Positions 36,001 to 42,000 of a stretch of DNA of 64,000 bases are shown here, in pieces. The position numbers were made by a program. Each line of letters starts with the position of its first letter. The stretch's first letter is position 1. This DNA is from Coprothermobacterota bacterium (GTDB lineage: Bacteria; Coprothermobacterota; HKB111): assembly GCA_037440465.1 (NCBI GenBank), contig JBBIUB010000007.1:1-64000 (forward strand). The letters are read 5' to 3'.

Positions 36001-39000
36001 TAATATCATGTCATCTGGGTGGAGGAGCAAGTCTGGCTGCAGTAAAAGGCGGATTATCAATTGATACTTCTATGGGTTACACACCTTTGGAAGGTGTATT
36101 AATGGCTACAAGATGCGGAGATGTTGACCCTTTCATACCACTCTATCTCATGCGAAGTCATGATATGTCATTAGAAGAAGCTAATGATTTTTTAAATAAA
36201 AATAGTGGCGTTATTGGATTAAGTGGTATAAATGGAGATATGCTTGATGTTGAAATAGCTGCATTAAATGGAAACAATCGCGCAGAGCTGGCTATCAATA
36301 CTTATTGTTATAGAATAAAAAAATATATAGGTGCTTATATGGCCATAATGGGTGGTCTTGATTTAATTGTTTTTGCTGGAGGAGTTGGCGAGAACTCTTC
36401 TATTATTAGAGAGAAGATACTGGGAGGACTTGATTTTATAGGAGTTGTTCTGGACCATGAAAAAAATAAAAAACTTCGTGGAGAGGGTGATATTAGCGGT
36501 CGTCCTTCAAAGGTAAAGATATGGGTCATACCAACTAATGAAGAATTTATCATCGCTAATGACACCTTTACCTTAGTTAACAAAAACAAAAAATTTCTAA
36601 CTGCAATAATATGAAAATTAAAATAAAAGATTTAACTGATTCTCCAACGCAAAGTAAAACAATATTTTTAAATAACTTTGAAGTTAAAATAGACACTTCT
36701 TTAAATGTTATTGTTAATGGAAATATTGAGATTAACTATGAAGTATCTCAGGTTAAGGCTAAGGGTAAGCTGGTTGGTTTTCCAACATTTACGTGTTCAA
36801 GATGTACCAGGGAGTATCAGGAAAAAATTGAAGTTGAAATTGATGAAGTTTTTAAGGAAGAACCGCTCAATAAATTGTCAGCAAAAGATATAGATTGGGA
36901 TAGGAATAATATTAACGTTTTCCCTCTTAAAGAAGGGGCCGTTGATCTTATTGAAGTCATCAGGGATAATGTTATAATCTCTCTACCTATGAAACCCTTG
37001 TGTAGTATTGATTGTCAGGGTTTCGAAATAAGTAACAAAAAAGGAGGTGATACCAATGGGAGTACCAATAAAAAAAGTAACTAGAAAGACAATATCAACA
37101 AGACAAAGTACTCATAAGAAAAATCATTCTGGTCTTGTTAAGTGTCCTAATTGCTCTAACTTGATTTCTCCTCATACAGTGTGCAGTTTTTGTGGACATT
37201 ACAAGGGTCGTAAAGCCCTTGAGATAAAGGTAAAAGAAAAGAAGGAGGCTAAATAAAGGTGGTTAATATAGTAGTAGATGGTGAAGGTGGCGACTTTGCT
37301 CCCAATGAAGTGGTCAAGGGGGTCTTGGAAGCATCTGACAAGGCTCCCTTCCGTATTCTGATTACTGGGAGAGAATCTATCCTTAAACTCTATGAGAAAG
37401 ATATAAATACAATTTACTGTAGTGACCCAGCACCTACTGATGAATCTCCAACTGAAGCCTTCAGAATGAAGAGGAATTCTTCATTATTTAGTGCATTAGA
37501 ACTTCTTAAAGAGGGTAAGGCTGACGCTTTTATAACTGCTGGTAGTACAGGAAATCTCCTGGTAGGAGCCACTATGATACTGGGTCGTATGAAGAATATT
37601 GAAAGACCAGCTCTGGGGGTATTTTTACCTACTTCTACCGGAAAAAAAAATTTTTTTATCGACATTGGTGCTAATCCCGATATTAAACCTGCACATCTTA
37701 GAGGATTAGCGATATTAAGTCAGGTATTTTTCCAGGTTAGTACGGGTACAAACACCCCACCAATTGCTCTTTTGTCTAATGGCATAGAAGAAGATAAAGG
37801 GAATTACTTCACAAGAGAAGCCAGAAAATTCCTTGAAGATTTACCCGGTTTTATCGGTTACGCAGAAGGATTTGATATTTTTAGCGAACCATCTAAGATT
37901 CTTCTTACTGATGGATTTACTGGTAACTTAATAATTAAATCCCTTGAAGGACTGGGAGACTTCATAAAAAATGGTCTCTTTGATATCCAAAAAACTTATA
38001 GAGGAAAAATCGGTCTACTTCTACTGAAACCCAACTTAAAAGCTATTTTAAAATCTTTAGATTATTCAGAATATGGTGGCGCTCCTCTCCTTGGAATTAA
38101 TGGTATATGCATTAAAGCTCATGGTCGTTCTAAAGCTAAAAGTATTTCTAAAGCAATCTGGTTAGCATATAAACTCATTGAAAAAGGGTATATGCAACAT
38201 GTAAAGAACCGATTGGATTTTGAGGAAAGCCGTTCTGAAAGCATTTAAAAAACAGATAGAAAAGATGATCAATATCCAAGTTAATAACCTGTCTTTAATA
38301 AAAGATGCCCTTACTCATAAATCGGAAAGACAGGAACAATTAGAGTTCATCGGAGATGCTGTTCTGGGACTGGTGATATCAAAAATGCTTTGCCAGACTC
38401 ATCCTGAATTTGGAGAAGGGAATTTAACTATAGCTCGAAGTAACCTTGTAAACAAAAAGTATTTATGCAATAAATTTAGAGAGATTGGATTAAACAAGTT
38501 CCTTGATCTCCAGACAGGCGTTGAAGAAACAGAAAGAATAATGGGAGATGCTTTTGAAGCTTTGATTGGCGCGATATTTATAGATAAAGGATTTGAGGTA
38601 ATATCTGATCTTATTAATAAATGGTTTAAATTGGATATTATTGATGCTTCTATACTTCTTGAAAGAGATTACAAAACAGAACTTCAGGAATATCTTCAAA
38701 AAAAGGGGTTATCACTCCCTCAATATATAAGTATAGAGAAAGAGAAACTTTTTCATACCTCAATATTTATTAACAATAAAATGATTTCAACAGGAAAGGG
38801 GCTAACAAAGAAAGCAGCAGAACAAGAAGCTGCTTCTCAAGCTCTTTACATCATTAAAGAAACTACCTATTAACAAAATCAAAAAAACTTGACATTAATT
38901 ATGGAATAATGTAAACTATTACCTGTAAAGGAGATATACTTGACATTATTTGAAAGGAGTTTAGAAAAATTCGAAAGACTTGGTGAGCTTTACGATTTCT

Positions 39001-42000
39001 ATGGAGTACTTTTAACCCTTAAAGAGAACCTTCTAATTGAGAAATTCCTATATGAAGGTTTATCAATATCGGAAATTGCCCGAGAGATAGGATGTAGTAG
39101 ACAAGGAGTGTATGACATGCTTCATAGAATAGAAAAAAAACTCCAGAATTTTGAAGAAAAAATGGGATTAGCCAGAAAAGAAAAGATGCTATTAGAATTG
39201 TTTTCAAAATTTAAAAACAGAATGCCTGAAGAGCTCAGGCAAGAAATTGAAGAACTTATTTTTTCACCAGGAGGTGATCAAGCTGGCAGTTAAGATTAGG
39301 TTAAAAAGAGTAGGTCGTAAACAACAAGCTGCCTTCAGGTTGGTGGCAGCAGATAGCAAAAGTCCAAGAGATGGTAAATTTCTTGAATTATTGGGTTTCT
39401 ATGATCCTAAACAAGATCCACCTAAAATCATCATTAAAGAGGATAGGGTTATTTACTGGCACAGGAAAGGAGCAAAACCTACTCCATCCAGTTATGCCCT
39501 TATTAAGAAAGCAGGAATTACCCTTTCATGAAAGAATTACTAAATTATATTGTAGAAAATATACTCCCTAAAGAAGCAAACTTTTCAATAGAGGAGCAGA
39601 TTATTGACGAAGCTATTATTTATAACATTCTAGTAAGTCATGATATGGTAGGAATTTTAGTTGGGAAAGAGGGTAATTTGATTAGGGCTATAAAAACCCT
39701 TCTCAAAGCAAGCCCTCATTCTAAAAACCAAGAAATAGTAATCCGTGTTGACAAGATGGAGGAAGCTAAATAATGAAGGGAAAATCTTTGTGGGCAAAAA
39801 GAAGCTTTTTAGTAAAAGCTATAACAACAGAGGGCTTAAGAGAGGAACTTGCAATTCAACTTCATGAAAACCAAAAAAGAATTGACCTTGAATTGGAAAA
39901 GTTAACCTATCAAGGTAATAAGCTACTTATAGAATCTTCTCTTGATATTAGAGAAAATATGGCTTTAAGAAAAAAAATTGAAGAAGAAAAAAGAGAAGGG
40001 GAGTTAGTGAAAAGTCAGATCTCAAGAAAAATTAAAGAGGTAAAAGAACTCGAATTAGGAACACTTTATCCAATTGGTGTTCTTGAAGGAATTGTTGAGC
40101 TTAAAGTAGGTGATAACCTTTGGGAAAAAGTGAACAGTGCAGAAGTTATAATCAAAGATGGAGTAATTCAGGATATTCATAATATATGAGAATTGATATA
40201 GTTACTGCCTTCCCTGAATACTTTTATAGCCCATTAGAAGTCGGGCTCATGCGCAGAGCTCTGGAACATGGCTATCTCAAGGTAGAGCTTCACAACCTAA
40301 GAGACTACTCCGAGAATAAACATGGGAAAATCGATGATTATCCCTATAGCGGAGGTCCTGGAATGGTTTTGCAAGCTCCACCCATTTTAAAAACTGTAGA
40401 AGAGTTAGGCAAAAATTTACCCTACAAACCTGAAATTATACTTTTTTCATCTACAGGTATACCTCTAAATTCATCTCTGGCAGAGGACCTTAGTAATAGG
40501 GAAGGTTTGCTGATAATTTGTGGTCACTATGAAGGAATTGATGAGAGAGTAAAGGAAAGTCTTTCACCACTTGAGATATCCCTCGGTGATTATATTATAA
40601 GCGGAGGCGAAGCAGCATCTCTTATCTTAATAGAGGCAATAGCAAGGTTCATCCCTGGCATAATAAGTGAAGAGTCTTTAGAAGAAGAGTCCTTTGCAGA
40701 AAACCTTCTTGAATATCCGCAATATACAAGGCCCGTTGAATGTGAGGGTTTAACAGTTCCAAATATTCTCATTTCTGGAAATCATAACAAATTTAAAAGA
40801 TGGATGATGAAAGAATCTCTTAAAAGAACATTAGTTTTGAGACCAGATTTATTAAAGAAAAGGTCTCTTAGTAAAGATGATTTAATAACAATTAAAGAGA
40901 TTATTTCTGAAATCATATCGCTGGTGGATGGATTAAATTCACCTAACTAAAGGAGGAAATCTTATGAACGAAGATATAAAAATATTAGTAGAACAAGAAC
41001 CTAAAAACCATGTTTTTAAGGTTGGAGACACTGTGAAGGTTCATCTAAAAGCTTTAGCAGGTGGGCCTACAAGTGGACAGATTTTTGAGGGGATAGTAAT
41101 TGCACGCAAACATGGTGGAGCTAATGAAACATTCACTGTAAGAAAGATATCTTCTGGTATCGGGGTTGAGCAGATATTCCCTTATAACTCACCAAGAATA
41201 TCAAAAATAGAAGTTGTAAGAAAAGGTAATGTAAGAAGAGCTAAATTATTTTACTTAAGGAAACTATCGGGAAAGAAAGCCCGAGTAAAAGAGGAACGTT
41301 AGTTTCAAATGAAGCATTTACCTATATTTGATGAGATATTCGAATGGGTAAAAACCATTTTAATTGCAGTAGTTATTGCCCTACTTTTAAGAGGTTTAGT
41401 AATTTCACCATTCAAAGTATCAATGACTTCAATGTACCCAACCTTACAACCTGACGATCTCATCCTTGTAGATAAATTAACTTATAAATTTCGTCTACCA
41501 ATGCCAGGCGATATCATAGTTTTCCATTCTCCGTTGGGAGAGAGTAAAGACTTTGTGAAAAGAGTAATTGCTGTTGGTGGAGATGAGATAGAAGGGGTAA
41601 ATGGACAATTATTTGTAAATAAAGAGCTATTAAAAGAGCCCTATCTTTCTAATAATCCAAATATTTCTTTCCCTTCTCAAGTAATTGAGGATGGAAAATA
41701 TTTTGTTATGGGAGACAACAGAGATAACAGTCTGGATAGTCGTAGTTTTGGTCCTATAGAAAAAAAAGAGATAGTAGGGCGTGTGTTGTTAATTTTCTGG
41801 CCTTTTAATAGATGGGAAAGAATCTGGCTTTAAAAACCAGCTCAACATAATGCTTATAGGTGGTATAGACGAAGCAGGAAGGGGTTCTCTTGCTGGTCCG
41901 GTAGTTAGTGCTATCGTTGCCTGGCATCCAGCCCGATTTCTTGCAAAGGACTCTAAATCTTTATCTCCAAAGATAAGGGATGAATATTTTATATACATTA

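Follow-up and report, generated by a model that had tools for sequence, protein, structure and literature searches.

A compact rnc-ylxM-rpsP operon and the probable loss of the signal recognition particle in a family of Coprothermobacterota

The DNA analysed here (the window) is a stretch of 64,000 nucleotides, positions 1 to 64,000 of contig JBBIUB010000007.1 (C7), from a genome (GCA_037440465.1, referred to as G000) of the Coprothermobacterota family HKB111. Pfam searches with the window ORFs bore out the gene order from coaD to rplS given in a preliminary description, and the whole contig contained no N (Table 1). The block from coaD to rpmF (34464..37256) is the left-hand neighbourhood that is conserved beside ftsY in sister families and leads to ftsY in two of their genomes, G002 and G007, while lepB and rnhB form a conserved right flank that is common to the same two genomes. 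Here, the final gene ahead of the empty ftsY slot is rnc, and the spacer separating it from ylxM is too small for a gene or a gene remnant. This spacer contains TTGACA and, after a 17-nt gap, TAAACT, which on the basis of the consensus may represent a putative promoter, and an AAGGAG precedes the TTG start of ylxM. It was also noticed that the ORF within which rpsP lies overlaps the 3′ end of ylxM, with a GGAGGTG located within ylxM; the same overlap, which leaves no space for ffh, occurs in three relatives from the family (G010, G011 and G012).

Table 1. Genes and sequence elements of the array on contig C7
Feature	Position	Strand	Basis
Array rsmD-coaD-x157-ackA-yceD-rpmF-plsX-rnc-ylxM-rpsP-khpA-ylqD-trmD-rplS-lepB-rnhB-yraN-comM-dprA	33907-45311	+	Pfam on window ORFs
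coaD	34464-34958	+	Pfam
x157 (157-aa ORF specific to f1)	34906-35379	+	
ackA	35388-36614	+	Pfam
yceD	36611-37084	+	Pfam
rpmF	37047-37256	+	Pfam
plsX	37259-38248	+	PF02504, E 3.2e-76
rnc (RNase III)	38220-38873	+	PF14622, PF00636, PF00035
rnc-ylxM spacer (66 bp; rSAM-ftsY at this place in f3)	38874-38939	+	Sequence reading
TTGACA	38889-38894	+	
TAAACT	38912-38917	+	
AAGGAG	38928-38933	+	
ylxM (UPF0122/p13; SRP accessory gene; TTG start at 38940)	38940-39293	+	PF04297, E 1e-19
rpsP (S16) ORF	39247-39531	+	PF00886; sequence and translations
GGAGGTG within ylxM	39270-39276	+	
ylxM stop (TAA)	39291-39293	+	
khpA	39528-39773	+	Pfam
ylqD	39773-40189	+	Pfam
trmD	40186-40950	+	Pfam
rplS	40964-41302	+	Pfam
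lepB (signal peptidase I)	41309-41833	+	Pfam
rnhB	41850-42392	+	Pfam

In the sister families, ftsY follows plsX-(rnc/acpP)-rSAM and ffh lies between ylxM and rpsP (G002 and G007). The ffh locus of G002 reads uvrB-ylxM-ffh-rpsP-ylqD-rimM-trmD-x-rplS-lepB-rnhB and its ftsY locus reads coaD-ackA-yceD-rpmF-plsX-acpP-rSAM-ftsY, confirming the placement of ffh upstream of rpsP and of ftsY downstream of plsX that had been described before, with approximately 1.0 kb between the end of plsX and the start of ftsY; in G007, rSAM-ftsY comes next after rnc. The gap-free array of G000, without ffh or ftsY, recurs in all three relatives within the family, and its proteins are ca. 30-73% identical (mostly 50-70%) among the four family genomes, which represent two genera. 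The SRP RNA gene of G002 is located between tadA and dnaX, whereas in G000 aspS overlaps dnaX, so that this slot is closed as well. All three ancestral slots (ftsY, ffh and SRP RNA) were thus closed on N-free DNA, and no new gene was seen in the vacated slots in the sequence of the G000 locus. RimM (PF01782), the gene of which sits between ylqD and trmD in G002, was detected in none of the four family genomes as against 9 of 9 others. A 27,138-base contig from another assembler, probably derived from the same sample, spans 37900-39900 with 0 differences; sequencing runs X2-X4 yielded pieces of 151-194 bases only and added nothing. The flanking gene order matches that of the Bacillus-type cluster, plsX...rnc-smc-ftsY-ylxM-ffh-rpsP-ylqC-ylqD-rimM-trmD-rplS, but G000 is devoid of ftsY, ffh and rimM and has ylxM translationally fused to rpsP.

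All four family genomes are metagenome-assembled genomes (MAGs), with completeness values of 94.5, 95, 89 and 83%; G000 amounts to 1.28 Mb in 35 contigs with 11 N-gaps. Our own scripts were run on G000, and G010-G012 were covered by genome database searches. None of the 4 family genomes had a match to the SRP54 GTPase domain (PF00448) above the cut-off, whereas 9 of 9 others did, as did 14 of 14 controls, which reproduces the earlier counts; outside the family, all genomes of the phylum contained Ffh and FtsY with scores of about 200 bits. For the SRP M domain (PF02978), absence had been reported from the whole family, and it held in G000, the one genome rechecked, in which nothing matched at E ≤ 10 (controls 14/14); a full-length Ffh HMM likewise gave no M-domain alignment in this genome. 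When the Ffh and FtsY proteins of relatives were used as tblastn queries against G000, the best match was a ParA (E 3e-4), and lineage-specific Ffh/FtsY HMMs, applied unfiltered to the 10575 six-frame segments of G000, matched only P-loops of ParA, ABC and PilT-like ATPases. Scanning of G000 for G motifs revealed no frame with both a DTAGR motif and a P-loop. The P-loop matches were considered as degenerate SRP GTPases and rejected, being assigned by Pfam to 1) ParA beside ParB, 2) ABC, 3) T2SSE/PilT-type, 4) SpoIIIAA/R3H and 5) CbiA-class proteins. Two ParA/CbiA-class ATPases on C9 have no assigned role.

Searches for the SRP RNA gave a parallel result. RF00169 was detected in 0 of 4 family genomes versus 6 of 9 others, as stated previously, and the counts given before for RF01854 (0/4 versus 6/9) were recovered at E ≤ 1, although only 2 of those 6 exceeded the gathering score. 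A covariance model (R1) built from the SRP RNAs of six relatives matched nothing at E ≤ 10 in the four family genomes and scored 137 bits on the G002 control. A descriptor of the domain-IV hairpin recovered 6 of 6 positives and had two matches in G000 (C1:154429 and C3:~55600), both of which were rejected as domain IV since they lie inside long ORFs and show no hairpin fold. An Rfam scan of the region around dnaX (C2:92000-106478) returned only a chance match to a miRNA family (E 0.88). As controls for small RNAs, RNase P RNA was found in all four family genomes, and a tmRNA and 47 tRNA genes were found in G000.

Of the remaining insertion machinery, SecY (C19), SecA (C1), YidC (C15) and trigger factor (C17) were detected in G000, all over the cut-off. 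The native YidC is a single-copy protein of 216 aa, 35-41% identical to YidC of the sister families; a second YidC match lies on C34, a contig of 62% GC that is probably foreign. No compensating feature was found in the YidC tail, SecA length or uL23 loop. Specifically, 1) a bypass through a YidC2/Oxa1-type tail was rejected, the C-terminal tail of YidC being shorter in the family than in SRP-bearing relatives and, for the G000 protein, 6-15 residues shorter when aligned with those of f2 and f3, 2) an extension of SecA was rejected, the open frames measuring 784-795 aa in the family versus 773-792 aa in relatives (13 genomes), and 3) loss of the uL23 tunnel loop or trigger-factor site was rejected, with the loop length unchanged and the TEK motif kept. 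The Pfam score of uL23 was slightly lower in the family (90-93 bits) than in relatives (106-116 bits). Eight BPD_transp_1 permease genes were found in G000, and by a crude hydrophobicity census 141 of 1238 ORFs have at least four hydrophobic segments.

These results suggest that Ffh, FtsY and SRP RNA were probably truly lost at the base of the family. This agrees with the reading of the preliminary description and draws on the closed slots, the four genomes in two genera, the negative outcome of independent methods and the positive small-RNA controls; doubt remains because all four genomes are MAGs. Deletion of ffh, ftsY and the gene for SRP RNA would have taken place in the common ancestor of the family, from which rimM, flhA of flagellar export, the radical-SAM gene adjoining ftsY and FlhF, the third SRP-type GTPase, would have disappeared as well. 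The lineage would have lived since then without co-translational SRP targeting, the compact rnc-ylxM-rpsP operon being the remnant of the locus. Polytopic membrane proteins may reach SecYEG/YidC by routes that serve elsewhere as back-ups, for which the candidates are binding of ribosomes, while they translate, straight to SecYEG or YidC and co-translational recognition of the proteins by SecA positioned at uL23; if growth is slow and energy limited, a low translation rate might lengthen the time available for targeting. In PMC6692507, SecA is described as a competitor of SRP that binds to uL23 and directs RodZ co-translationally.

Could the three genes have moved to DNA that escapes assembly or binning (for instance an island, a stretch flanked by repeats or an extrachromosomal element), their absence being an artefact of the MAGs? 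All four genomes are of this kind, that of G000 with its contig breaks and N-gaps, and the small contigs C34 and C35, with 62-69% GC and a foreign composition, point to imperfect binning. However, three unlinked genes would have to be missed in each of four independent assemblies, for which we calculate from the completeness values a chance of about 1e-13 under random loss, a rough guide only; three ancestral positions are closed and therefore three separate moves would also be required, and other small RNAs were recovered in 4/4. Relocation is thus unlikely. Divergence of the targeting GTPase and RNA beyond recognition, or their replacement by a non-homologous factor, is very improbable: the lineage is deep-branching, its YidC has drifted far from that of the sister families, ylxM is kept and conserved and the two ATPases on C9 are without an assigned role, but Ffh and FtsY are readily recognized in all other genomes of the phylum, lineage HMMs, tblastn and motif scans hit only P-loops that Pfam firmly assigns to other families, the M domain has no match in G000 and the vacated slots hold no new gene. 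The retention of ylxM deserves separate mention. It is present in all four family genomes without an adjoining ffh, and the G000 protein is 55-56% identical to those of the three relatives, with an invariant HTH core. The only partners described for YlxM are Ffh and SRP RNA, and YlxM of Streptococcus mutans binds both YidC paralogues directly (PMC8546722). It is odd that a conserved ylxM is kept without Ffh and SRP RNA, and this counts against a long-past loss of SRP; under such a loss, YlxM would persist through a function needing neither. Replacement of SRP by an unrecognised, non-homologous coupling of translation to the membrane, with YlxM as a candidate that would need neither Ffh nor SRP RNA to act at the ribosome or at YidC, seems improbable to us. 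A query with a single YlxM for related loci returned one unrelated Lachnospiraceae locus only.

The loss may also be real but tied to dependence on another organism, the bacterium being an epibiont or a symbiont, similar to the losses in organelle-like insect symbionts, a possibility to which we give a small but appreciable chance. It would fit the small genome, the missing or weak state of rimM, flagella and a clear acpP, and the natural SRP losses otherwise reported, in passages of PMC4122945, from extreme symbionts. On the other side, SRP-bearing relatives are equally small (1.2-1.6 Mb), the genome retains many ORFs rich in hydrophobic segments, transporters and a seemingly full Sec/YidC set, and such MAGs are described in part of PMC9751293 as streamlined H2-/formate-using lithotrophs, a link to G000 that depends on the lineage name used in the preliminary description. 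A free-living status, based on gene content and, through that name, on the same part of PMC9751293, goes beyond the evidence and is not proven. That no free-living prokaryote lineage naturally lacking SRP was known before is likewise not proven. Our literature search for free-living SRP-less prokaryotes met with no report, the losses encountered being confined to organelle-like insect symbionts and mitochondria, and the main text and one supplementary file of PMC9751293 nowhere mention SRP, Ffh or FtsY.

Ffh, FtsY and SRP RNA are regarded as belonging to the universal core of cellular life, and Ffh and FtsY commonly serve as single-copy markers for completeness estimates and phylogeny. If they are truly absent, such use would make the family genomes appear less complete than they are. 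True loss at the base of the family would mean that SRP is dispensable in nature, beyond the laboratory, in an organism with an ordinary polytopic membrane proteome and one native YidC, and would offer a natural system for probing the minimal machinery of membrane protein biogenesis.

Among known systems without SRP, mitochondria have an Oxa1 with a ribosome-binding tail and membrane-tethered ribosomes. The likeness to most mitochondria and to the insect endosymbionts Portiera and Carsonella lies in the natural loss of ffh and ftsY, which passages of PMC4122945 report for the two symbionts; mitochondrial Ffh and FtsY are kept, as parts of PMC8321541 state, in only a few eukaryote groups. The genomes of these systems are tiny and encode very few membrane proteins, and a host supports them, unlike G000, which has 1.28 Mb, roughly 1200 ORFs, SecY, SecA and YidC and no evident host. 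The laboratory SRP-null strains of S. mutans (ffh/ftsY/scRNA), Saccharomyces cerevisiae and Escherichia coli Δffh, according to sections of PMC7844537 and PMC8546722, likewise lack SRP and keep SecYEG/YidC/SecA. As set out in portions of PMC7844537, S. mutans and yeast can survive the loss of SRP, and so can E. coli with translation-slowing suppressors; in E. coli Δffh the suppressors affect translation initiation, and slower translation compensates. S. mutans depends on an additional YidC, the tail of which is long and basic, whereas G000 has one native YidC with a tail shorter than those of its relatives. Finally, the laboratory strains are engineered and are sick or stress-sensitive, whereas the state seen in the family of G000 is natural, apparently old and found in two genera.

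Pfam assignment of the ORFs in the window revealed a continuous plus-strand array with the order rsmD-coaD-x157-ackA-yceD-rpmF-plsX-rnc-ylxM-rpsP-khpA-ylqD-trmD-rplS-lepB-rnhB-yraN-comM-dprA, on a contig (C7) containing no N. The spacer between rnc and ylxM was 66 bp long and, judged from sequence only, contained a consensus-like TTGACA and a TAAACT separated by a 17-nt gap, followed by a Shine-Dalgarno sequence. The stop codon of ylxM fell among the initial codons of rpsP, whose ribosome-binding site, GGAGGTG, lay inside ylxM. Both junctions are too tight to hold a gene or a gene remnant, and with the Pfam order and the absence of N they bear out the preliminary description of a gap-free array in which the ftsY and ffh slots are empty. 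The x157 product (157 aa) gave a weak, below-cut-off match to an ATP-synt_B-like coiled coil (E = 6.9e-5); x157 was located between coaD and ackA in all 4 genomes of the family, with about 49% identity between genera, and coaD and ackA were adjacent in the sister-family genomes G002 and G007, both of which had no x157.

Coordinates of the array and of features within it
Feature	Position in window	Strand	Basis
rsmD to dprA	33907-45311	+	Pfam on ORFs
x157	34906-35379
plsX to rplS	37259-41302	+	Pfam on window ORFs
ylxM	38940-39293
rpsP ribosome-binding site	39270-39276
ylxM stop codon	39291-39293
ylqD-trmD junction	40189/40186

The corresponding genes in G002 (family f2) and G007 (family f3), each assembled as one contig, were arranged as follows: 1) in G002, uvrB-ylxM-ffh-rpsP-ylqD-rimM-trmD-x-rplS-lepB-rnhB at one locus and coaD-ackA-yceD-rpmF-plsX-acpP-rSAM-ftsY-IMPase at a second, and 2) in G007, coaD-ackA-yceD-rpmF-plsX-rnc-rSAM-ftsY-IMPase at the ftsY locus and ylxM-ffh-rpsP-ylqD-...-trmD-rplS-...-comM-dprA at the ffh locus. 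Based on these gene orders, the array in the window represents a fusion of the ftsY and ffh loci of the sister families from which rSAM-ftsY, ffh and rimM are missing. The last of these, located between ylqD and trmD in G002, was missing at the ylqD-trmD junction, and RimM was found in none of the 4 family genomes versus all 9 other Coprothermobacterota genomes; rimM is thus a second conserved gene deleted out of the same operon. G010, G011 and G012, the three family relatives, are members of another genus; their proteins from this locus were 29-73% (mostly 50-70%) identical to those of the genome under study (G000). All three had the array in identical order on stretches free of N, with ylxM again overlapping rpsP.

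The SRP GTPase domain PF00448 scored over cut-off in 0/4 family genomes versus 9/9 others, each of the nine having Ffh and FtsY and most a third, FlhF-sized copy. The lack of this third SRP-type GTPase is accounted for by the loss of flhA, since FlhA of the flagellar export system was detected in 0/4 versus 8/9 genomes, and flagella seem to have been lost in the family. PF02978 had no match in G000 at E ≤ 10; controls for both domains were positive in 14 of 14 model genomes. With the Ffh and FtsY frames of the relatives as queries, tblastn of G000 gave a best match of only E = 3e-4, which was rejected as an SRP GTPase, being a ParA adjoining ParB. Lineage-specific HMMs, trained on Ffh (7 sequences) and FtsY (4 sequences) from the phylum and applied without any filter to 10575 six-frame segments of G000, returned solely P-loop alignments of 40-100 residues, and a DTAGR motif and a P-loop never occurred in one frame of this genome. 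The ORFs behind this P-loop noise had firm Pfam assignments (ABC, ParA/CbiA, T2SSE and a SpoIIIAA/R3H protein) and were rejected as candidates for degenerate SRP GTPases. The earlier observation that Ffh and FtsY cannot be found was confirmed.

For the SRP RNA, the counts reported in the preliminary description (0/4 versus 6/9 for both RF00169 and RF01854) were reproduced for RF00169 on repeat search; those for RF01854 stood at E ≤ 1, with the gathering score exceeded in only 2 of the 6 genomes. A covariance model built on the SRP RNAs of six relatives scored 137 bits in G002 and found nothing at E ≤ 10 in the 4 family genomes. A domain-IV hairpin descriptor recovered 6/6 positive controls; its two matches in G000 were rejected, as each lay within a long ORF and failed to fold as the domain-IV hairpin. 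The SRP RNA of G002 is located between tadA and dnaX; the order in G000 is hisS-aspS-dnaX-recR with aspS overlapping dnaX by 10 bp, indicating that this third slot is closed too. RNase P RNA was recovered in 4/4 family genomes, and tmRNA and 47 tRNA genes in G000, so the failure to find SRP RNA is not general. The tmRNA, predicted by aragorn at C21:1902-2257, has a short tag peptide (GGKKINAA), and a tRNA-SeC was present.

The region 37900-39900 was spanned without a difference by a 27,138-base contig of a sequencing run (X1), obtained with a different assembler. This contig backs the assembly; X1 may be the source of the G000 DNA and hence is not an independent sample. A second X1 contig (28.5 kb) differed at 13 of 68 bases from the rpsP 3′ end (39469-39536), and a related population may coexist in the sample. 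Two contigs of the bin, C34 (3.9 kb, 62% GC) and C35 (4.3 kb, 69% GC), are probably contaminants, the rest having 32-42% GC; the YidC encoded on C34, long and of Gram-negative type, is cut off by the contig end. Given the agreement of several searches, the three closed slots and the concordance of all 4 family genomes, the earlier reading of a true evolutionary loss is supported, and we consider it probable that an ancestor lost the entire SRP pathway, the main caveat being that all four genomes are MAGs. Genome reduction alone does not explain the loss, because the SRP-bearing relatives are themselves only 1.2-1.6 Mb.

Retention of ylxM is hard to explain, because the only partners described for YlxM are Ffh and SRP RNA (PMC8546722). 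Conservation of the gene is high, at 55-56% identity between the two genera and with an invariant HTH core, and its retention and the position of its stop codon in the rpsP start suggest translational coupling and an SRP-independent function.

The membrane proteome of G000 is of ordinary size: in a crude hydrophobicity census, 141 of 1238 ORFs had at least 4 hydrophobic segments and 33 at least 10, there were 8 BPD_transp_1 permease genes, and an MFS transporter and a Na+/H+ antiporter were encoded in the window. SecY, SecA, YidC and trigger factor were all present. S. mutans and yeast survive SRP loss, and E. coli can do so once initiation and elongation of translation are slowed (PMC7844537). 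SecA, a competitor of SRP, binds to uL23 at the tunnel exit and is able to act co-translationally (PMC6692507), and YidC paralogues contribute in S. mutans (PMC8546722). By analogy with this laboratory work, ribosomes might dock directly on SecYEG/YidC, SecA could assist this route, and slow translation would help targeting in an energy-limited, slow-growing organism. No structural signature of compensation was found in the YidC tail (shorter than in relatives), SecA (length unchanged) or uL23 (tunnel loop intact).

A tblastn search of G000 with the G002 acpP found nothing, though plsX is kept; the only acyl-carrier-protein match was a marginal one to PF00550 at C12:36891-37022 (23.1 bits, E = 1e-4). 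How far the lineage can synthesise fatty acids bears on whether it is free-living. 'Ca. Lithacetigenota' MAGs, a name applied to G000 in the preliminary description only, are presented as streamlined lithotrophs in PMC9751293, whose main text and one supplement make no mention of SRP. In our literature search, no non-symbiotic prokaryote lineage was reported to lack SRP; that the present lineage is free-living and the first such case is plausible but unproven. Among natural systems, loss of both ffh and ftsY has been described in organelle-like insect symbionts (PMC4122945) and in most mitochondria (PMC8321541).
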